A stretch of 64,000 bases of DNA from Gammaproteobacteria bacterium (GTDB taxonomy: Bacteria; Pseudomonadota; Gammaproteobacteria; Arenicellales; Poriferihabitantaceae): positions 167-64,166 of the forward strand of contig JAUVBY010000001.1 in NCBI GenBank assembly GCA_030590945.1, given 5' to 3'. Positions 30,840 to 58,668 of the stretch are shown piece after piece. Within the stretch, counting starts at the first letter, position 1. The number at the start of each line of letters is the position of its first letter. Made by a program: the position numbers and the translations under genes. Below the pieces are notes generated by a model. The model was not told where the DNA came from and searched no databases. It worked only from the letters and a program-made list of their open reading frames with translations.

Positions 30840-30865
30840 TCAGCGCTATCGGTGTTTAACCTGAA

Positions 30866-31096
30866 TTCCTCAGTTGGACAGGGTATAGGGCGCTTGTGTG
30901 GTGGCGTATGGCAAGGCGTACCTGCGCGGAATGGTCATTCCCTTTCAAGCAGTTACAACGCGGCCATACGCCACCACAGGAGTGCAATATACTCTGTAGC
31001 GCCTTAAACCCATAGAGTGAAAAGGATGAAATACAATTCCCTAATGAATTCATGTGCTTATTCATATCTCGTAGCGGTCAACTGAGGATTTTAGGT
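30866..31096 (+). repeat. Copy A of a roughly 230-bp structured repeat (unclassified; ncRNA or non-autonomous mobile element)
   Basis: It is about 90% identical to 57431..57660 over the first roughly 150 nt and over the last roughly 25 nt. Its termini are complementary (CCTCAGTTG / CAACTGAGG). It carries a perfect 16-bp long-range helix (30897-30912 with 30963-30978) and nested hairpins. The strand shown is arbitrary. Confidence 0.7.
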
Positions 31097-33544
31097 TTAA
31101 GCATCGGTTCTTGAGCGAATCGATTCCGGGTCCCAGACCGGGTTGTTTATTACCAGGGCGCGGTATTGTTTGCCCAGTAACTCGACGAATAATTGCGTTC
31201 CGGCTTGCGCATATTTTGCTGCGACATACGCAAAACCGAGGCTTTTTCGGGTGGTATGGCCATAACCACCTGAGGTTGTGACGCCCACGGGGTTTCCATC
31301 GGCAAACACCGGTTCACCCCCGGCGATATCGCAGTCACTGGAATCCACTTCCAGGTAAACTATTTGTTCAGCAATACTATTTTCGAGCACGTTTAACGTA
31401 GCCTCTTTACCAGTAAAGTGATCTTTTTTATCTGCAAAAAATCGCATCAGGTCAGCTTCCACCATGGTGATTTCGTTGGTTAGTTCACTGCCCCAGCCTT
31501 TGTAGGCTTTCTCCATGCGCATCGAGTTGACCGCGTAGGTACCAAAGTTGGTGATATTAAACTCCTGTCCGGCAGCCCACAGCGCATCGTAAACATGCAG
31601 CAGATCCGCCATTGGTACGTGTAGTTCCCAACCCAGTTCTCCGACATAATTGACCCGCAGGGCGCGTACCTGGCAGCCTGCTACGGTTATTTCCTTGCCC
31701 GTCAGCCAACGAAAATTCAGGTTATCCAGCCCGGCACCCGTCAATTTACTGAGTACATTGCGTGAGTGTGGTCCCGCCAGTACCAGCACACCATAATCGT
31801 CGCTTACATTTTTAAGCTGTACGTCTTCACCATCCAGAATGCCTTGTTTAAGTGTATCGAAATCCCGGTCTTCAGCGACTGCGCCGGACAGGACGTAATA
31901 TTGTTCTTCATTTAAGCGAGTGATGGTCGATTCGCCGCTGATACGGCCGGTTGGAGATAGATAGTGTGTCAAACAGATCCCACCATTGCGCGACGATATA
32001 GTGTTAGCGCTTATCCGGTTGAGCAGCGACCGCGCATCTTTGCCGGCCACATCATACTTGGCAAAGCTAGACAGATCCAGCAGGCCAACTCGCTCCCGCA
32101 CCGCCTTACATTCATCGCCTATGACGTCAAAGATGTTGTTGTGCCGAAAGCCTGCCTGTTCCTGCCTGCCATCAGGGGAAAACCATTTAGGCCGCTCCCA
32201 GCCATTGGCCTCAGTGTAGACGCATCCCTGTTCCAACAGGCGATCATATAGAGGTGTGATTCTTGCCTTACGTGCGGCAGGGCGTTCCTCGCCGGGCAGA
32301 TGTAAGGCATACATGTGTTCGTAGTCCTGATGTGATCTGCTTTTGGTAAAGCAGCCGGGTGCAAATCGGCCAAAGCGTCGCGGGTCGACCCCCGCCATGT
32401 TGATTTCGGCATCACCGTAAATCATCCATTGCGCGAGATACTTACCGGAGCCCGCGCCCGCCGCAATGCCAATCGAAGCACCATTGCAATGCCAGAAATT
32501 GCGTAATCCGGCAGCCGGACCCAGACAGGGGTTCCCGTCTGGCGTATGTGGAATGGCACCGCAGACCACGCGTTTGATGCTCAGATCTTCCCACATGGGT
32601 ATGCGTTGCATGACGCGTTCGATAAAGGGCAGTAGATTATCGAAATCAGGGTTGAACAGTTCGTTTTCAGATTTCCACTCCGGCCAGCCATCCCGGTGAG
32701 TCCAGCATTCTTCTGAGTTGGCGGTTTCGTATATCCCGATCAGGGCAGATTTTTGTTCCTGACGATAATACGCGGAGGGGTAGGGATCTCGCATGACCGG
32801 CATTTCTTCATCGCATTCCAGAAATTCGGGCACAGATTCTGTGACGACGTAAGTATGTTTCATATTGGTGATGGGGGAATCCGTACCCACCATCTGGCTG
32901 ACCTGTCGAGCGTAGCATCCCGCGGCATTCACCACCATCTCGCAATGAATATTTCCCTCTTCTGTAACGATCTCCCAGTCACCGGATTTTTTCTGATTGA
33001 TATCAATGACCCGGTTTCCGGTAATGATTTTGGCACCTAAGTTCCTTGCTCCTATAGCCATCGCCTGGGTAATACCCGCTGGATCAACGTGCCCGTCATT
33101 GATCGTCCAGGCACCCGCAATCACCCCGTCGGTATTTACATGCGGGTTAAGCTGGCGTATTTTGGCCGGGTCAATGATCTCGCAGTCAAACCCAATCAGT
33201 TTGCCCACACTGGCAACGCGGTGAAACCAGTCTACTTCGGATTGCTTAAGCGCAAAACGGATACCCCCGCAGCCATGCCAGCTGACATACTGACCGGTTA
33301 GTTCCTCGAGTTTGGGGTATAGTTGGATGCCGTGGTCGTGTATCTTCGCCATATTGTAATCAGCGATAAAACTGGGGCATTGCCCGGCCGCATGCCAGGT
33401 TGAGCCCGATGTGAGTTCACCTTTTTCGATCAACAGAATATCTGTCCAGCCCTCCAGTGCGAGATGGTATAACAGGCTAACGCCCATGACGCCACCGCCT
33501 ACGATGACTACTTTGGCCTGCGAAGGGAGGGCAGTATCACTCAT
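31097..33544 (-). CDS. FAD-dependent oxidoreductase + GcvT-like domain (dimethylglycine dehydrogenase-like), second paralogue
   Basis: 815 aa with VIVGGGVMGVSLLYHLA, STWHAAG, and a C-terminal aminomethyltransferase-like domain (YVGELGWELHVP). Its ATG overlaps the MttB-like gene stop (ATGA). Confidence 0.85.
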   Translation of the reverse strand: MSDTALPSQAKVVIVGGGVMGVSLLYHLALEGWTDILLIEKGELTSGSTWHAAGQCPSFIADYNMAKIHDHGIQLYPKLEELTGQYVSWHGCGGIRFALKQSEVDWFHRVASVGKLIGFDCEIIDPAKIRQLNPHVNTDGVIAGAWTINDGHVDPAGITQAMAIGARNLGAKIITGNRVIDINQKKSGDWEIVTEEGNIHCEMVVNAAGCYARQVSQMVGTDSPITNMKHTYVVTESVPEFLECDEEMPVMRDPYPSAYYRQEQKSALIGIYETANSEECWTHRDGWPEWKSENELFNPDFDNLLPFIERVMQRIPMWEDLSIKRVVCGAIPHTPDGNPCLGPAAGLRNFWHCNGASIGIAAGAGSGKYLAQWMIYGDAEINMAGVDPRRFGRFAPGCFTKSRSHQDYEHMYALHLPGEERPAARKARITPLYDRLLEQGCVYTEANGWERPKWFSPDGRQEQAGFRHNNIFDVIGDECKAVRERVGLLDLSSFAKYDVAGKDARSLLNRISANTISSRNGGICLTHYLSPTGRISGESTITRLNEEQYYVLSGAVAEDRDFDTLKQGILDGEDVQLKNVSDDYGVLVLAGPHSRNVLSKLTGAGLDNLNFRWLTGKEITVAGCQVRALRVNYVGELGWELHVPMADLLHVYDALWAAGQEFNITNFGTYAVNSMRMEKAYKGWGSELTNEITMVEADLMRFFADKKDHFTGKEATLNVLENSIAEQIVYLEVDSSDCDIAGGEPVFADGNPVGVTTSGGYGHTTRKSLGFAYVAAKYAQAGTQLFVELLGKQYRALVINNPVWDPESIRSRTDA

Positions 33545-35112
33545 GGTTTCATTTGTTCGCGGGGCAGGCGAATATCAAAGTTGGCGCGAAGGCGGGCATC
33601 GAGTTTTTCGCTGATATGTTGCGGAAAATGGCTGGCCAGAATTTCCCGGGTTTTTACTCTGGCTGGCACGTTTATCGGTTGAGAACCCATTTCCTTCCAA
33701 AGGTCTGGCGGAAATCGATTACCCACCTCCGGGTAAACGTAATCTTTTAACATTCTTGATAAGGTGGATTCATGCGAGAGAAAATGCTCGGGACCATTGA
33801 GGCAAACATCTTCGATAGTTTTGAGCGCCAGCGTGTCGTCGTCAATTTCAATGCCACGTACGCTGCGATTAATGGCGCCAAGCATATCATTGTCCAGCGT
33901 GCAACCTTCAAAGCTGAAGCCCAGCAGGCTCGCTTGCATGCCTGCCGCTTCATAGACCATATTGGCACCGCTGTGCCCGGCCAGAGCGAGGGTATAACCC
34001 TTCTCAAAGCCTGACTGCGCATCTGGAATTTTGGAATCGGCCATGCCGGCTGCGATGCCGGTCGGTAAATCATAATAACGTCCCATCTGGCCACAGGCCG
34101 CCATTAATATAGCCTGCTCTCCGCTACCACCACTCATGGCGCCGGTTCTCAAATCAGAGACGAATGGCCAGGGGCCGGCAACACAAGGGTGGCCGGGGAC
34201 CATGCTATTTACATAGGCCAGTGCGCCCAGCACTTCGGCCATTTCCTGAACAACTGCACCGGCGAGTGTGGCCGGACTGGTTGCCCCGGCCTGCCCGGCA
34301 GCAAGTAACAGTACGGGCATGCCACCATGCACTACAACCTCTAATACACGACAGGCATCTTCAGCAAATCGCAGGGGGGGGACCACAAAGCAGGACGACA
34401 TGCTAACAAACGGTCGCTCGCGCCATTTTTTTTCACTGCCCGCGATTTCGTGTAACATTTTGAGTGTTTGCTGTGCGTGTTCGGGTTCGACATAACTTAC
34501 CCCGACATGCTTCGTGGTACCTGATACCGAAGCGTAGGTAGTATTGAGATCCATCGCAGCGGGTTGCACAATATCTCTTGCCACCAGAGGGCGTTGAAAA
34601 AAGTGAATGTGATCCAGGCTGTCAACTAACCGTGCCGCGTCGTACAAATCCTGAATGGTCGAATCACGATAGGCACTCGCGTTTGGATAATCAGCATGGG
34701 TTTTCCAGTCATCGACAATATGCACGGCCGCGCCTGCGGTTCCAAAGTAGACTTTATTTCCACTCAAATGCAGGTCGTGTTTTTCTTCCTGGCCGTATAA
34801 GGTAATATTTCTTGCGGCAATATCGAGTGTTTTTAAAATTAGATCGCGCGGAAAGAGTAAACGGCCATCATCTGTATATTTTCCACCGGCCGCGGTCACT
34901 GTTTTAATACACGAGGGAATTACGCGGGAAAAGCCGACGTTCTCCAGCAAATCCAGAATGGCTTCATGGATGCGCTGCATATCTGCTTCAGTCAGAGGAT
35001 GAAAACGCCCCCCCGACTGGCCCGGATGAACGGCTTTATCTTCTTCGGCCAGTGGTGCTGCACGCAATGCACGACGGGCGACCCTACCGCCTGCTCTTTT
35101 AGATGCCATCAA
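33541..35112 (-). CDS. MttB-superfamily methyltransferase, non-pyrrolysine type (quaternary amine:corrinoid methyltransferase candidate)
   Basis: 523 aa with an uninterrupted frame and no in-frame TAG. The Arg-rich N-terminus is followed by ..PLTEADMQRIHEAILDLLENVGF.., with TIM-barrel-like MttB family resemblance throughout (recall). Confidence 0.75.
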   Translation of the reverse strand: MMASKRAGGRVARRALRAAPLAEEDKAVHPGQSGGRFHPLTEADMQRIHEAILDLLENVGFSRVIPSCIKTVTAAGGKYTDDGRLLFPRDLILKTLDIAARNITLYGQEEKHDLHLSGNKVYFGTAGAAVHIVDDWKTHADYPNASAYRDSTIQDLYDAARLVDSLDHIHFFQRPLVARDIVQPAAMDLNTTYASVSGTTKHVGVSYVEPEHAQQTLKMLHEIAGSEKKWRERPFVSMSSCFVVPPLRFAEDACRVLEVVVHGGMPVLLLAAGQAGATSPATLAGAVVQEMAEVLGALAYVNSMVPGHPCVAGPWPFVSDLRTGAMSGGSGEQAILMAACGQMGRYYDLPTGIAAGMADSKIPDAQSGFEKGYTLALAGHSGANMVYEAAGMQASLLGFSFEGCTLDNDMLGAINRSVRGIEIDDDTLALKTIEDVCLNGPEHFLSHESTLSRMLKDYVYPEVGNRFPPDLWKEMGSQPINVPARVKTREILASHFPQHISEKLDARLRANFDIRLPREQMKP

Positions 35113-37380: not shown

Positions 37381-37391
37381 AACCGCATGAA

Positions 37392-37512
37392 CCTCCCCCT
37401 TTAATAAAGGGGGATAGAGGGGGATTTGCGCGAAGTTGGTAATCTGTATTCAATTTTATTAATTAGATAAACCTGCAAATCTCCCCCAACCCCTCTTTGT
37501 TAAAGAGGGGAG
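37392..37512 (-). mobile_element. MITE-like element X (inverted orientation relative to 53714..53831)
   Basis: Its reverse complement shares both roughly 37-bp termini with element Y, with 1-2 mismatches each (CTCCCCTCTTTAACAAAGAGGGGTTGGGGGAGATTTG ... CAAATCCCCCTCTATCCCCCTTTATTAAAGGGGGAGG). The cores are unrelated. Each terminus contains a hairpin. The element sits 11 nt upstream of the betA ATG. Confidence 0.75.
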
Positions 37513-37559
37513 CTTAACAGCTAGTTCATGATTCAAGAGGTAACCCGCTGCGACAGTCA

Positions 37560-52909: not shown

Positions 52910-53726
52910 TACCTGTGGCTGTAACATTACAGATGGCAATGCGCACCTGGTAAAGCCGGGTGGTAAGTTGTCTTTGACCGCGTCGGGCAATGAAGCCGTA
53001 TCAGTGTTGCGTAGCTTGCTTCATGAAAACGATCATGCCGCCGCGCATAACCGCAGCCATTTTGACGAACATGGTGTACTGGCAATCAACCTGATGTCTT
53101 CGCCCGGAGCCGGGAAAACAGCCCTGCTGGAAGCGACGATACAAGCTCTGGGTGACCGTTATCGTTTTGCGGTGGTGGAAGGTGATCTTGAAACCGAGAA
53201 TGATGCTGAGCGTATACGGCGCCATGGAATTCCAGCGGTACAAATCACCACTGGCAGTGCCTGTCATCTGGATGCTCACATGGTGCATGATGCCCTGCAT
53301 GAACTGAATCTCGATGATATCGATGTATTATTTATAGAGAACGTGGGTAATCTGGTATGCCCGGCCAGTTTCGATCTGGGCCAACACTTAAATGTGACCT
53401 TATTGTCCGTGCCGGAAGGCGATGACAAGCCCGCCAAGTACCCGGTAATATTTCGCGTAGCGGATCTGGTGCTGCTGACCAAGGCCGACCTGTTGCCTGT
53501 ACTGGACGATTTCAGCCCCGAGAAAGCCGAACAAAATCTGCGTAACCTGGCTTCTGAGGCGCCTTTGTATACGGTGACCGTTAAATCAGTCCTCGCGCTT
53601 GAAAGCTGGTTGAACTGGCTGAAGGCTGAAGTTAAAGCTCAACGGGCGCGCGTTGCGAAAGGGGAGACATCGCAACCGGCGATCCAGCCGGAAGGTGCGG
53701 CATTGCATGAAAGCTCCCCTCTTTAA
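52902..53726 (+). CDS. hypB: Hydrogenase nickel-incorporation GTPase HypB
   Basis: 274 aa. The N-terminus is MCDTCGC, the P-loop is SSPGAGKT, and ENVGNLVCP is present. The last four codons and the stop lie inside MITE-like element Y. Confidence 0.92.
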   Translation: MCDTCGCNITDGNAHLVKPGGKLSLTASGNEAVSVLRSLLHENDHAAAHNRSHFDEHGVLAINLMSSPGAGKTALLEATIQALGDRYRFAVVEGDLETENDAERIRRHGIPAVQITTGSACHLDAHMVHDALHELNLDDIDVLFIENVGNLVCPASFDLGQHLNVTLLSVPEGDDKPAKYPVIFRVADLVLLTKADLLPVLDDFSPEKAEQNLRNLASEAPLYTVTVKSVLALESWLNWLKAEVKAQRARVAKGETSQPAIQPEGAALHESSPL

Positions 53727-53831
53727 CAAAGAAGGGTTGGGGGAGATTTGGGTGTTGCAAGCAGTTTTGGAATATCAATACCTTGTCTTCCGCTCAAATC
53801 CCCCTCTATCCCCCTTTAATAAAGGGGGAGG
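53714..53831 (+). mobile_element. MITE-like element Y (same family as 37392..37512)
   Basis: Both roughly 37-bp hairpin-containing termini match the reverse complement of element X. It spans the hypB 3' end and the hypB-hypD spacer. Confidence 0.75.
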
Positions 53832-53852
53832 TAATTCTGGAGCATTAAACCC

Positions 53853-54953: not shown

Positions 54954-54992
54954 TTCTGGAAGCAATGGAGTTATCGATCAGCCCCGTCGACA

Positions 54993-55104
54993 GGATTGCG
55001 TCATTGAGGAAGAAAGTGACGTGGCAAATTACATGGATGACGTATTATGCAAACCACGAGAAAGGCATAAAACATCTGGATTGTCGCGCTACGCGCGCAA
55101 TGAC
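54993..55104. repeat. Short TIR-bearing MITE-like element in the hypD-hypF spacer
   Basis: GTCATTGAGGAAGAAAGTGACGTGGCAA (55000-55027) faces GGATTGTCGCGCTACGCGCGCAATGAC (55078-55104), giving GTCATTG...CAATGAC ends. The element is preceded by GGATTGC (54993-54999). Only a single copy is present in this window. Confidence 0.35.
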
Positions 55105-55112
55105 ATTGCAAA

Positions 55113-57419
55113 ATGAAAGATAAATCGGTTGCCCGGAAAATCTACGTAAGCGGTCGGGTTCAGGGCGTTGGCTTCAGGCCATATATTTACCGCCTCGCTG
55201 ATCACTGCCAGCTGACCGGTAGTGTGTGTAATCGCATGGGCCAGGTCGAAATTGTTGTGCAGGGCAGGGCTGAGCAGGTAGATCAGTTTGGCGCTGTTCT
55301 GGTCGAACTATCACCGCGGATTGCAAAACCATTTATTGTGTCCAGCAAAGCCGTGCCCCCGAAAGAGCGGGATAAATTTGAAATCTTGCCGAGTGAAGCA
55401 AAGGGCGAGGCCTCAATACATGTGCCGCCTGATTTTTTCACTTGCCCCGATTGCCTGGCGGAGCTGCGTGATCCGAAAAATAGGCGATACGCTTACCCCT
55501 TTATTAACTGCACCCAATGCGGGCCACGTTATACCCTGATCGAAGGCTTGCCATACGATCGGCCTAATACCAGCATGGCCGGTTTTAAACTGTGTGATGA
55601 TTGCAGGAAAGAATACGAGGCACCGCTGAATCGTCGTTTTCACGCGGAACCGATCGCCTGCCCGACGTGCGGGCCGGCACTTTGTTATGAATCGGCTGCG
55701 CTGAAAACAGGTACTGATCTGGCGCCGCTGAGGCAGGCTGTAAAGGCTTTACGTAATGGTCAGATTGTGGCGGTAAAAGGAATTGGTGGTTACCACCTGA
55801 TATGTGATGCGCGTAATAAAGCTGTGGTTGATCGCCTGCGCGCATCCAAGCATCGTCCGCATAAGCCCCTTGCGGTGATGTTCGTGGCGGAAGCTTATCG
55901 GGAAGATTCTGAATTAAACCGCGCAGTGATTGTGCCGGATGCGCAGTGGGACCGACTTAATCAGCCGGATCGGCCAATAGTATTGTTGCGCAAGCAAGGC
56001 GATTGCGGGCTGGCTGAATCAATAGCGCCCGGGCTAAATGAAATAGGAGTGATGCTGGCGTACAGCCCGTTACACGATGTGTTGCTGCGTGAATTTGGCG
56101 GGCCAGTGGTGGCCACTTCCGGGAACCTGAGTGGTGAGCCGGTAATTACTTCAAGTGCTATGGCTGCGCGCCGACTTGCGGGAGTGGCGGATGCCTTTTT
56201 GCATCACAACCGACCCATTGTTCGCCCGGCAGATGATTCTGTACTGCGTTTTATCGCCGGCCGTCCGCGGACAATGCGTTTAGGGCGCGGTTTGGCACCG
56301 CTGGAGCTGACCTTGCCCTTTAGCTTGCCGGAACCCGTTCTGGCGCTTGGGGGGCATATGAAAGTGACAGTTGCACTCGCGTGGGGCCGGCGAATAGTGG
56401 TTTCTCCGCATATTGGTGAAATGGAGTCGCCACGTAGCCTTAGGGTTTTTGAGCAGGTGCTGGGTGATCTTCAGGCTTTGTACGGCGTTGTTGCGAAGCG
56501 ACTGATTTGTGATGCCCACCCTGCGTATGCCAGTCATCGATGGGCGTTGAAACAGGATTTACCCGTCAATACTGTGTGGCATCATCACGCGCATGCTTCA
56601 TCGCTGGTTTTAGAGCCCATGTCCACATTTTCCGGGCAGGAAAAAATGCTGGCTTTCACTTGGGACGGAGTCGGCTGGGGGCCGGATGAAACACTTTGGG
56701 GTGGAGAGGCCTTGCTGGGTACCCCGGGGAACTGGCAGAGATTTGCGCATTGGCGGCCTTTTAATGTGCCCGGAGGTGATCGGGCCGGCCGCGAGCCGTG
56801 GCGCAGTGCGGCGGCTTTGTGTTGGGCCCTGGGGATTAATTATTCGCGGTCCGAAGCGCTGCGGGAAAATACTATAGAACTGCTGCACACCGCCTGGGAG
56901 AAAAGGATTAACGCCCCGCAAACGAGCGCAGTGGGGCGCCTGTTTGATGGTGCCTCTGCGCTGTTGGGTCTTGTCGAGCAGGCGAGTTTTGAGGGGCAGG
57001 GGCCAATGTATCTCGAAGCACTTGCCGAAGGGATTCGTGGTTCGACGATATTATTGCCCATCCATGTTTTACCGGACAAGTCAGGTTTAAAGGGCAAGGG
57101 GTACCAAATCGACTGGGCGCCGCTGGTCAGGCATATGCTGGATGACGAACTAAGCCCCGGACAGCGCGCGGCAGACTGGCATGAATCGATGGCGAAAGCC
57201 TTGCTGGTGGTTTCCGAGCTGGCAAGGAAAGAACACGCAATAGAGCGTATCGGTCTGTCAGGGGGTGTGTTTCAGAATCGCGTTCTGAGTGAGCGGGTGA
57301 TCCAGCTGTTAAAGAAACAGGGATTCGATTATCAGTTTCCCGGGCAGGTTCCAGTGAATGATGGTGGCTTATGCGTGGGGCAGATCGTGGAATATTTATA
57401 TCAACAAAATTCAGGTTAA
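55113..57419 (+). CDS. hypF: Carbamoyltransferase HypF
   Basis: 768 aa. It carries an acylphosphatase domain (VSGRVQGVGFRPYIYRLA), two CxxC-x18-CxxC zinc fingers, and YrdC-like and Kae1-like domains. Confidence 0.93.
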   Translation: MKDKSVARKIYVSGRVQGVGFRPYIYRLADHCQLTGSVCNRMGQVEIVVQGRAEQVDQFGAVLVELSPRIAKPFIVSSKAVPPKERDKFEILPSEAKGEASIHVPPDFFTCPDCLAELRDPKNRRYAYPFINCTQCGPRYTLIEGLPYDRPNTSMAGFKLCDDCRKEYEAPLNRRFHAEPIACPTCGPALCYESAALKTGTDLAPLRQAVKALRNGQIVAVKGIGGYHLICDARNKAVVDRLRASKHRPHKPLAVMFVAEAYREDSELNRAVIVPDAQWDRLNQPDRPIVLLRKQGDCGLAESIAPGLNEIGVMLAYSPLHDVLLREFGGPVVATSGNLSGEPVITSSAMAARRLAGVADAFLHHNRPIVRPADDSVLRFIAGRPRTMRLGRGLAPLELTLPFSLPEPVLALGGHMKVTVALAWGRRIVVSPHIGEMESPRSLRVFEQVLGDLQALYGVVAKRLICDAHPAYASHRWALKQDLPVNTVWHHHAHASSLVLEPMSTFSGQEKMLAFTWDGVGWGPDETLWGGEALLGTPGNWQRFAHWRPFNVPGGDRAGREPWRSAAALCWALGINYSRSEALRENTIELLHTAWEKRINAPQTSAVGRLFDGASALLGLVEQASFEGQGPMYLEALAEGIRGSTILLPIHVLPDKSGLKGKGYQIDWAPLVRHMLDDELSPGQRAADWHESMAKALLVVSELARKEHAIERIGLSGGVFQNRVLSERVIQLLKKQGFDYQFPGQVPVNDGGLCVGQIVEYLYQQNSG

Positions 57420-57430
57420 ATGATCCTAAT

Positions 57431-57660
57431 TTCCCCAGTTGGACAGGGTATAGTGTGCTTCTGTGGTGGTGCAGGGCAAGGCGTAACTGCGCGGAATGGT
57501 CATTCCCTTTCAAGCCGTTACAACGTGGCCATACGCCAGCACAGGGGTGCAATATACCCTGTAGCGCCTTTAACCCATACAGTGAAAAGAAAAAACACAC
57601 CCTTTTTAATTGATTCATATGCTTATCCATCTTTCATAGCGGTCAACTGAGGATTTTAGG
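57431..57660 (+). repeat. Copy B of the roughly 230-bp structured repeat, located inside the hyp operon
   Basis: It is homologous to 30866..31096 and fills almost the whole hypF-hypE spacer. Its conserved 3' tail TAGCGGTCAACTGAGGATTTTAGG supplies the only SD-like GAGGA (57649-57653), 10 nt before the hypE ATG. Confidence 0.7.
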
Positions 57661-57663
57661 ATT

Positions 57664-58668
57664 ATGCGAGACAAATATATATCTCTGGCACATGGTAACG
57701 GTGGCATCTATATGCGTGAGCTCATTGAGCAGCTTTTCGCGCGTTACCTGGGCAATCCGGATCTCGATGTTCAGGCAGATGCCGCACATTTGCAGTTAAG
57801 CTCCAGCGATATCCTGTTCACTACCGACGGGTTCACCGTGCAGCCGCTGGAGTTCCCTGGCGGTGATATTGGATCATTAGCAGTGCATGGCACCACCAAT
57901 GATCTGGCGGTTTCGGGGGCTAAGCCCGTGTATCTGAGCCTGAATGCGTTTATCGAAGAGGGTCTGGAGATCTCGGTGCTTGAGCGTATTATTCAGAGCC
58001 TGGCGAGAGCCGCAAAGCAGGCAGGTGTCGTAGTCGCAGCGGGTGATACTAAGGTGCTGCCACGCGGTGAAGGTGGCGGACTGTATCTTGCGACCACGGG
58101 CATTGGTATACGCCAGAACCCGTACCCGCTGGGGCTGGACCAGATTCAGGCCGGGGATAAGATGCTGGTCAGCGGTTCGGTCGGTGATCACGGTATTGCG
58201 GTGATGCTGGCGCGCGAGCAATTTGGTCTGCGTGGTGATTTACAATCCGATTCGGCCAGCGTACTGCCCTTTACAGAGTGCCTTCTGGACCTGCCCGGCT
58301 TGCATTTTATGCGTGATCCGACTCGAGGTGGTCTGGCGACGGTTTGCCACGAGTTGAATCGTGCTACCGGCCTGGGAATCCGACTAAAACAGGATGACAT
58401 ACCGGTTAATGAGCCCGTGCAGTCGGTCTGTGATATGTTGGGATATGATCCGCTCTATCTGGCCTGTGAAGGGCGCGTAGTTGCGGTGCTTGCCGCTGCG
58501 GATGCCGATGAGGCGCTGCAACGCTGGGCGGAGTTACCCGGCGGAGAGTCAGCTTCGATATTTGCTGAGTTCGGTAATGATCATGACTCGGTCTTACTGG
58601 AAACCCATTTCGGGGGGGAGAGAATTCTGGAAGAACTTGAAGACGATCCCCTGCCACGCATTTGCTAG
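57664..58668 (+). CDS. hypE: Hydrogenase maturation protein HypE
   Basis: 334 aa with an AIR-synthase-like fold, ending in the conserved ..PRIC. Confidence 0.92.
   Translation: MRDKYISLAHGNGGIYMRELIEQLFARYLGNPDLDVQADAAHLQLSSSDILFTTDGFTVQPLEFPGGDIGSLAVHGTTNDLAVSGAKPVYLSLNAFIEEGLEISVLERIIQSLARAAKQAGVVVAAGDTKVLPRGEGGGLYLATTGIGIRQNPYPLGLDQIQAGDKMLVSGSVGDHGIAVMLAREQFGLRGDLQSDSASVLPFTECLLDLPGLHFMRDPTRGGLATVCHELNRATGLGIRLKQDDIPVNEPVQSVCDMLGYDPLYLACEGRVVAVLAAADADEALQRWAELPGGESASIFAEFGNDHDSVLLETHFGGERILEELEDDPLPRIC

Follow-up and report, generated by a model that had tools for sequence, protein, structure and literature searches.

The stretch of DNA analysed here, referred to as the window, comprises 64,000 nucleotides (nt) of contig JAUVBY010000001.1 (assembly GCA_030590945.1) from a gammaproteobacterium of the Poriferihabitantaceae, and the feature under study is the spacer between its genes hypF and hypE. 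The list of open reading frames (ORFs) and the Pfam matches establish the plus-strand gene order hypC-hypA-hypB-hypD-hypF-hypE, and just upstream of this row are the genes for the small subunit of a [NiFe] hydrogenase and for a maturation protease. The hypF gene (55113-57419, plus strand; 768 amino acids) matches the Pfam families HypF_C_2, Sua5_yciO_yrdC, zf-HYPF, HypF_C and Acylphosphatase and ends in a TAA stop codon at 57417-57419. The hypE gene (57664-58668, plus strand; 334 amino acids) is intact, matches AIRS and AIRS_C and carries the C-terminal PRIC motif, and its product is 91% identical to the homologue P0001. The 244 nt that separate the two genes (57420-57663), boundaries already drawn in a preliminary description of the sequence and borne out by the ORFs and the Pfam matches, are the product of a single insertion of a non-autonomous transposon, namely a MITE (miniature inverted-repeat transposable element) with IS1380-type ends, between hypF and hypE.

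A transposon in the hypF-hypE spacer

The element, here called copy B, lies on the plus strand at 57425-57660 and is delimited by a pair of terminal inverted repeats (TIRs) and a flanking 5-nt duplication; the preliminary description was right that a repeat fills the spacer, but the extent of 230 nt that it gave has to be corrected to exactly 236 nt. The left target-site duplicate (57420-57424) reads ATGAT today and ATTAT ancestrally, and the change of T to G has created an ATG immediately 3′ of the hypF stop codon (TAAATG). The left TIR follows at 57425-57444 (CCTAATTTCCCCAGTTGGAC) and bears two changes specific to copy B, A to T at position 6 and T to C at position 11. Next comes a long hairpin of about 120 nt (57443-57562), recognized by its self-complementarity, its folds and its covariation and stable on the hypE-sense strand, followed by an A/T-rich and poorly conserved 3′ half (57563-57641; alignments A2 and A3) in which strong structure is absent. 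The right TIR (57642-57660; GTCAACTGAGGATTTTAGG) agrees perfectly with the consensus and matches the right end of an insertion sequence (IS) at locus L023. Within this repeat lies GAGGA (57649-57653), a motif nearly invariant across the family and the only plausible Shine-Dalgarno (SD) sequence of hypE. The right target-site duplicate, ATTAT at 57661-57665, contributes with its final two bases the A and the T of the hypE start codon. A 76-codon ORF that begins at the new ATG spans the element on the plus strand (57420-57650), and its TGA stop codon (57648-57650) overlaps the GAGGA.

The insertion becomes apparent when the junction is compared with that of relatives lacking the element, a comparison that the preliminary description had proposed. 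HypE homologues of 80-91% identity were located on their own contigs, and eight hypF-hypE junctions were compared. In all eight, hypF and hypE lie 2-14 nt apart, the element is missing, and a GGG(G) in the final hypF codons, 6-9 nt 5′ of the hypE ATG, is found as the SD sequence; its counterpart in the window is an SD-like AGG at 57413-57415, likewise within the final hypF codons. The closest relative, L015, whose HypE is 91% identical, has the junction ...GGGTTAA ATT ATG CAGGAC and thereby provides the empty site TAA-ATT-ATG. When positions 57425-57660 and one pentamer are removed from the window, what remains is ...GGTTAA ATTAT GCGAGAC, the same junction as in L015. The 236-nt element and one 5-nt duplicate add up to 241 nt, and the 3 nt left over correspond to the ancestral spacer. 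The ancestral spacer was therefore 3 nt long, 241 of the present 244 nt derive from one insertion, and the target ATTAT overlapped the A and the T of the hypE start codon. Copy B has diverged by 10% from its subfamily consensus, and hypE differs from its L015 counterpart at 46% of four-fold sites; the insertion is therefore younger than the split from L015. No orthologous filled hypF-hypE site was present among the fetched loci, and nothing was found that contradicts the insertion itself. A transposon insertion whose duplication overlaps the hypE start codon had no place in the preliminary description, and it is the better explanation of the spacer.

The window holds a second copy of the MITE, copy A (30860-31095 on the plus strand, or 30855-31100 with its duplicates), which lies between convergent genes, is flanked by a perfect TTTAA/TTTAA, is 85% identical to copy B and has diverged by 12% from its subfamily consensus. 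The convergent DAO/GCV_T gene (31097-33544, minus strand) has its TAA stop codon within the right duplicate of copy A (31096-31100); here the insertion struck a stop codon, which was kept intact by the duplication. Throughout the family the flanking 5-nt repeats vary from copy to copy and agree between left and right, as in TTTAA/TTTAA, TTCAG/TTCAG, ATGAT/ATGAT and ATTAT/ATTAT, copy B having ATGAT/ATTAT. The flanking pentamers match at all five positions in 43 of 75 copies and at four positions in another 22, against mostly one or two matches for control pentamers taken farther out, and the target consensus is W-T-N-A-W. A 3-bp duplication combined with a TIR longer by 1 nt was considered and rejected because it would require concerted changes at both tips of copy B and because perfect 5-nt cases such as TTCAG/TTCAG exist. 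The TIRs are about 20 nt long (left consensus CCTAAAATCCTCAGTTGGAC, right consensus as in copy B), and the terminal stem that they form is 98.5% paired over 74 copies. The element is small and multi-copy, has no transposase of its own and accumulates substitutions without a coding signature; every testable criterion identifies it as a MITE. A search of Rfam gave no match to the element at the gathering threshold, the best E-value in sensitive mode being 0.14, far below gathering.

The element family and its autonomous partner

When contigs representing one genome per species were searched for exact matches to the hairpin apex, 13 further copies came to light, all in metagenome-assembled genomes (MAGs) of Thiotrichaceae (large sulfur bacteria) and distributed over four MAGs; many of these copies are situated at contig ends, as expected for a multi-copy repeat. 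A match at L014 was discarded as a chance 20-nt match and is not a copy of the family. This apex-biased sample was replaced by a second one, drawn from metagenome contigs with the TIR only and thus independent of the hairpin, in which copy orientation was assigned by a similarity graph. The TIR-based scan detected the TIR on at least 120 metagenome stretches, and among the metagenome matches listed the TIR pairs are mostly 232-239 nt apart, with a peak at 235-236. Other spacings also occur, of 50-227, 385 and 448 nt (L083:648-1032, L092:116-563, L037, L040, L046, L064, L066, L075, L103 and L127), which suggests deletion derivatives or composite forms. A subfamily seen in the copies L002, L009, L011 and L013 of the Bpl_19 MAG has 15 extra nt, GCCCACGAGAAATTG, inserted into the 3′ arm of the hairpin.

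Two TIR pairs have a spacing of 1,679 nt, with an ORF of 513 amino acids between their ends (L023:240-1918, and L028). The L023 copy of this IS is flanked by ATTAT/ATTAT, and its TIRs are the same as those of the MITE. The 513-amino-acid protein matches the Pfam family DDE_Tnp_1_4 (2e-24, 86 bits; gathering threshold 34.7), and its best NCBIfam model is IS1380 (6e-42, 143.7 bits; curated equivalog cutoff 180). Homologues of this transposase, 81% and 65% identical, adjoin the same TIR in L101 and L129. The MITE has in common with the IS its terminal 20-30 nt alone, oriented like the transposase gene; it is accordingly classed as a MITE with ends of the IS1380 type, and to judge by these shared ends it could be mobilised in trans by the autonomous partner. 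Its right tip, ...GGA(T/A)TTTAGG, resembles the right inverted repeat of ISEcp1, the best-known member of the IS1380 family. The IS found here begins CCTAGATTCCTCAG, and its ends, CCTAGATTC..., are the same over 9 nt as the left inverted repeat of ISEcp1, CCTAGATTCTACGT, an element that generates 5-bp direct repeats (PMC6061673). A text search for IS1380 combined with MITE returned no title or abstract describing an IS1380-type MITE, and none for these bacteria.

The long hairpin belongs to the interior of the MITE and was not found in the partner IS. Double compensatory changes were detected at 30 of its 49 consensus pairs, and 95.8% of the alignment cells in the hairpin are paired, compared with 83% in column shuffles and 37-50% when the partners are slid. 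The covariation score of 0.402, compared with at most 0.117 for slid partners, was reached by none of 500 shuffles. The transposase-sense strand gives the more stable fold in every one of the 74 copies (median difference -18 kcal/mol), cells with G·U or U·G outnumber those with A·C or C·A by 458:35 (about 13:1), and RNAalifold assigns -48.0 kcal/mol and 50 pairs to the plus strand compared with -12.4 kcal/mol and 25 pairs to the reverse complement. These patterns argue that the long hairpin is under selection, and covariation and strand specificity together point to a role as single-stranded RNA or DNA.

Two further observations concern the surroundings of the hairpin and the strand opposite to it. 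In an orientation survey that relied on crude ORFs of at least 100 codons rather than gene calls, neighbouring long ORFs were antisense to the stable-hairpin strand in about 34 cases and sense in 17 (p = 0.02 from non-independent counts; 74 copies, loci L003-L139), and copy B has the minority (sense) orientation. The minus strand contains a near full-length stop-free frame, which reaches at least 70 codons in 47% of copies compared with 8-9% of windowed shuffles, and which exits via the left TIR as ...QLRIL with the T-N-A target core read as a codon (alignment A3; L076:3417-3648, L045:5196-5430). Several diverged subfamilies have this frame open, yet the substitutions inside subfamilies appear neutral and show no deficit of stops; being open is a property of the source sequences that is not kept up once a copy has been inserted. 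A real small gene on the minus strand of inserted copies was rejected on the same kind of evidence, the counts of synonymous, non-synonymous and stop changes being neutral and free of any codon-position bias.

Probable consequences for hypE expression

By landing at TAA-ATT-ATG, the element put 241 nt between hypE and both its former ribosome-binding site (RBS; GGG in the final hypF codons) and the stop codon of hypF. The hypE start codon itself survived because the duplication rebuilt its A and T, and the end of the right TIR supplies a new SD sequence 10 nt upstream, given that GAGGA is located 7 nt from the right tip and hence 10 nt before an ATG that begins at position 4 of the duplication. 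The sequence of this repeat is itself fixed by its function as a transposon end. The preliminary description had recognized GAGGA as the only SD-like sequence of hypE, had placed it in the conserved 3′ end of the repeat and had pointed out that it can pair with the 5′ end, all of which holds. The geometry is not unique to this locus. Both tips of the element read outward as CTGAGGATTTTAGG; in L076, L079 and L119_4446, too, position 4 of an ATTAT-type duplication is where the ATG of a long ORF begins; and in many copies, copy A included, the stop codon of a neighbouring gene lies inside the duplication. Because the same arrangement recurs at other copies, the donation of an SD sequence is a by-product of the element ends and the W-T-N-A-W target, and an adaptation specific to hypE was rejected. 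TAA and TGA stop codons and AT-rich start regions naturally fit the T-N-A core of the target, and the duplication keeps the codon that was struck.

The element is likely to be co-transcribed with hypF and hypE, as the preliminary description had assumed; the close spacing of the two genes in all eight relatives makes this the natural reading. In the mRNA, the TIRs and the near-palindromic duplications would pair and thereby hide both the SD sequence and the AU of the start codon. The predicted folds of both copies are far more stable than those of dinucleotide shuffles, with z-scores of -5.7 for copy B and -8.6 for copy A. GAGGA pairs with the left end (CCCCAGTTG) in the minimum free energy (MFE) structure as well as in the ensemble, and in the ensemble of 57360-57705 the probability of being unpaired is about zero for G57649, G57651, G57652, A57653, A57664 and U57665, A57650 being excepted from the pairing. 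The pairing partners of the SD sequence and the AU are the left TIR and its duplicate (57420-57441), directly 3′ of the hypF stop codon. When 57403-57432 is kept single-stranded, a constraint that imitates a ribosome terminating on hypF, the probability of being unpaired is 0.56-0.95 for G57651, G57652, A57653 and A57664. Since the masking arm consists of the first 22 nt or so past the hypF stop codon, ribosomes completing hypF would open it, and ribosomes re-initiating at the ATG at 57420 would do likewise. According to this model, hypE translation is probably still coupled to hypF, now via RNA structure over 240 nt, and the effect of folding on hypE translation that the preliminary description had suggested appears plausible, with the SD sequence and the start codon predicted to be paired at equilibrium with a probability near one and to be opened by a ribosome at the hypF stop codon. 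The terminal stem of copy B has two broken pairs, and 65 of 74 copies have none. An adaptive origin of its two left-TIR changes finds no support, as two changes in 20 nt are about what a divergence of 10% predicts and are indistinguishable from neutral decay.

The hypE gene is probably still functional: it is intact, the PRIC motif has been kept and the gene appears to be under purifying selection; about 4.6% of simulated neutral hypE copies with 10% divergence remain stop-free. We regard the combination of MITE insertion, SD donation and structure-mediated coupling of hypF and hypE as a likely explanation of the locus as a whole. It is important to point out what weighs against it. An SD spacing of 10 nt is close to the longest that is usual. 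The fold was predicted for equilibrium and takes no account of co-transcriptional folding, helicases or RNases. The partner transposase can be called IS1380-like and scores below the curated NCBIfam cutoff. The promoter scan was simple and limited to the sigma-70-type consensus. Finally, lineage-specific amino-acid changes number 14 in HypE compared with 7 in that of L015, and 33 in HypF compared with 63 (Fisher p = 0.0125; L015 and L016 compared), an asymmetry that could reflect weakened hypE expression or constraint.

The same asymmetry, joined by the predicted masking of the RBS, would fit a mildly deleterious insertion that has left hypE under-expressed or under relaxed constraint in this lineage. 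We think this improbable: hypE is intact down to its catalytic C-terminal PRIC motif, its product shows about 4% lineage-specific amino-acid change despite about 10% substitutions in the element, and the hydrogenase small subunit and maturation protease are encoded nearby. Coupling might also have been repaired adaptively by a translational relay, in which ribosomes re-initiate at the ATG at 57420, melt the hairpin and the terminal stem while translating the 76-codon ORF, terminate at the UGA that lies in the SD region, 14 nt upstream of the hypE AUG, and then start anew on hypE. The ORF required by such a relay exists (57420-57650), its ATG arose in a pentamer that was ancestrally ATTAT and has the ancestral AGG 4 nt to its 5′ side, plus-strand frames of at least 70 codons occur in just 9% of copies, and antisense copies between co-directional genes have element-spanning ORFs that end at the downstream start (TAATG, ATGA, TGAATG). 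However, the openness is mostly inherited, the hairpin half being stop-free in all B-type copies, and 9% is the frequency expected from shuffles. Within subfamilies there is neither a deficit of stop substitutions nor a codon-position pattern, so that inserted copies have not been selected to stay open, and the case is a single instance noticed post hoc with no orthologous filled site for comparison; an adaptive relay is an unlikely account. A cut by RNase III in the hairpin of about 46 bp or in the TIR stem could alternatively split the hypF and hypE messages, release the SD sequence and alter half-lives. The helix is long, consists mostly of Watson-Crick and G·U pairs and is formed on the transcribed strand, and Correia and ERIC elements offer a precedent by analogy. 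The more frequent antisense position of the copies relative to their neighbours (about 34 vs 17, from the non-independent counts given above) is not what a function as sense RNA in host mRNAs would lead one to expect, and we consider such processing a doubtful explanation.

ISEcp1 is known for driving the expression of downstream genes, and an outward promoter in the element could by analogy make hypE independent of hypCABDF, the more so as the 3′ half of the element is A/T-rich. The role of ISEcp1 upstream of blaCMY-2 has been discussed (PMC6061673). Against this, the simple scan for sigma-70-type consensus sequences found no -35/-10 pair on the plus strand of 57420-57663, and the MITE shares with the IS its terminal 20-30 nt and not the subterminal promoter region, which makes a promoter very unlikely. 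The preliminary description had proposed that the helix of copy B was eroded by selection against a terminator-like structure within an operon, on the grounds that copy B has three mismatches in a helix that is perfect in copy A. The three mismatches are real (3 of 46 pairs in a 12-copy alignment) and the MFE of copy B is less negative than that of copy A, but the helix of copy A is not perfect, having two non-pairs of 46. In the 74-copy alignment the number of broken pairs in copy B, 2 of 33, is the mode of the family, its hairpin is the 21st most stable among the 74 (-61.6 kcal/mol, the median being -46), copy A being the most stable of all, and its 10% divergence is uniform and similar to the 12% of copy A. 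The sequence 3′ of the hairpin is AGCGCCTTTAACCC, a U-run follows the hairpin in none of the copies, so that it never resembled a terminator, and a simple scan detected no terminator-like site in the element. Erosion against a terminator accordingly has next to nothing in its favour. A cis-regulatory RNA dedicated to hypE, be it a riboswitch, a thermosensor or an attenuator that arose for its control, would account for a strong structure supported by covariation that includes the SD sequence; it is effectively refuted by the element-free junctions of all eight relatives and by the presence of the element at dozens of unrelated loci, in both orientations and with target-site duplications, and the lack of an Rfam family match offers it no help. 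A broader and rather improbable view is that the family is more than selfish DNA, namely a MITE built for stop/start junctions in operons that avoids polar damage. The covarying hairpin on one strand, the open frame on the minus strand and the outward GAGGA at both tips make such an operon-adapted MITE conceivable; such a MITE would rebuild stop and start codons, provide an SD sequence and stay translatable or foldable, and its hairpin may serve as a signal in single-stranded RNA or DNA, for instance during transposition or as processed RNA.

Neighbouring features and known systems

The hypD-hypF spacer (54954-55112) measures 159 nt in the window and 89 nt in L016 (hypD end 616, hypF start 706). 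Most of the hypB-hypD spacer is occupied by a second, unrelated repeat of about 125 nt, present on the plus strand at 53711-53832 and as an inverted copy at 37391-37515. The final codons of hypB and its TAA (53724-53726) lie inside this repeat, which terminates in GGGGGAGGT, and the inverted copy ends directly 5′ of a minus-strand ATG (GGAGGTTCATG); this may be a second family in the same operon that sits at gene boundaries with an SD-like end. Elsewhere in the window, Rfam reports a PYLIS_3 match (58 bits; gathering threshold 38) at 33945-34044 on the minus strand, within a 523-amino-acid ORF of the MttB family (33541-35112, minus strand) whose neighbours form a glycine-betaine catabolism cluster (GMC oxidoreductase, DAO+GCV_T dehydrogenase and GntR/aminotransferase regulator). 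The ORF is uninterrupted and has no in-frame TAG, so that the match is probably a coding-sequence similarity of a non-pyrrolysine MttB homologue. Arrays of the heptamer TAACTGA, described for marine Beggiatoaceae (PMC4679880), were not found in the window.

The partner IS resembles IS1380-family elements such as ISEcp1 in its TIR tip (CCTAGATTC...), its 5-bp A/T-rich direct repeats and its DDE_Tnp_1_4 match, with IS1380 as the best NCBIfam model but below the equivalog cutoff, whereas the MITE differs from them in lacking a transposase, in its length of 236 nt, in sharing with the IS no more than the terminal 20-30 nt and in its covarying, strand-specific hairpin interior. The Correia elements of Neisseria are small, TIR-bounded MITEs that are co-transcribed, whose TIRs pair in the mRNA and which can alter the expression of downstream genes; they measure about 100-155 bp, duplicate TA and have no separate long internal hairpin, and both RNase III processing and promoter creation have been documented for them. 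The element described here is likewise a small TIR-bounded element between genes, with TIRs that are predicted to pair in the mRNA, but it differs from Correia elements in sequence, size and host, and its duplication is a 5-bp W-T-N-A-W and not TA; the sequence search made here covered genomes of E. coli, not of Neisseria, and blastn of the spacer gave no match in 5,426 E. coli genomes. The ERIC (or IRU) elements of enterobacteria and Yersinia are transcribed intergenic repeats of about 127 bp, the hairpin of which acts on neighbouring mRNAs in an orientation-dependent manner, and they are linked to no known transposase and no 5-bp duplication; the MITE, in contrast, has 236 nt, IS-linked ends and such a duplication. 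In the rpmI-rplT pair of the E. coli IF3-L35-L20 operon and in the coat-replicase region of phage MS2, long-range pairing has been shown experimentally to hide the downstream RBS. The fold predicted here would similarly sequester an RBS by means of a segment that upstream ribosomes cross or cover; unlike those systems, in which the pairing evolved in place, it would join one end of a transposon to the other, in a putative mechanism.

In the large sulfur bacteria, Ca. Thiomargarita nelsonii has been reported to contain abundant hairpin-forming MITEs, one of which interrupts the hydrogenase gene hupL (Flood et al. 2016, PMC4853749). For this MITE in hupL, a direct repeat of 10 bp, an inverted repeat of 19 bp and a proposed PD-(D/E)XK origin are described, and the MITE in the dsrA intron has TATAG repeats (PMC4853749). 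These hairpin MITEs come from the same bacterial family as the Thiotrichaceae that bear the element studied here; judged by their descriptions they are set apart from it, as neither the hupL nor the dsrA MITE matches the combination of a 5-bp W-T-N-A-W duplication with IS1380-type ends. As far as the searched literature shows, the IS1380-type MITE family has not been described before, while an RBS donated by an insertion is an event of a known kind.

The family is abundant in large sulfur bacteria and in metagenomes of marine origin, and the covariation of its hairpin is of the kind that is normally read as evidence for a functional RNA. For the annotation of Beggiatoaceae and Thiotrichaceae genomes, this means that the MITE is to be expected at gene boundaries and at contig breaks. 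Finally, the locus indicates that a transposon can land between translationally coupled genes without killing the downstream one and, with its matched empty-site relatives, it offers a test, set up by nature, of structure-mediated coupling across 240 nt.

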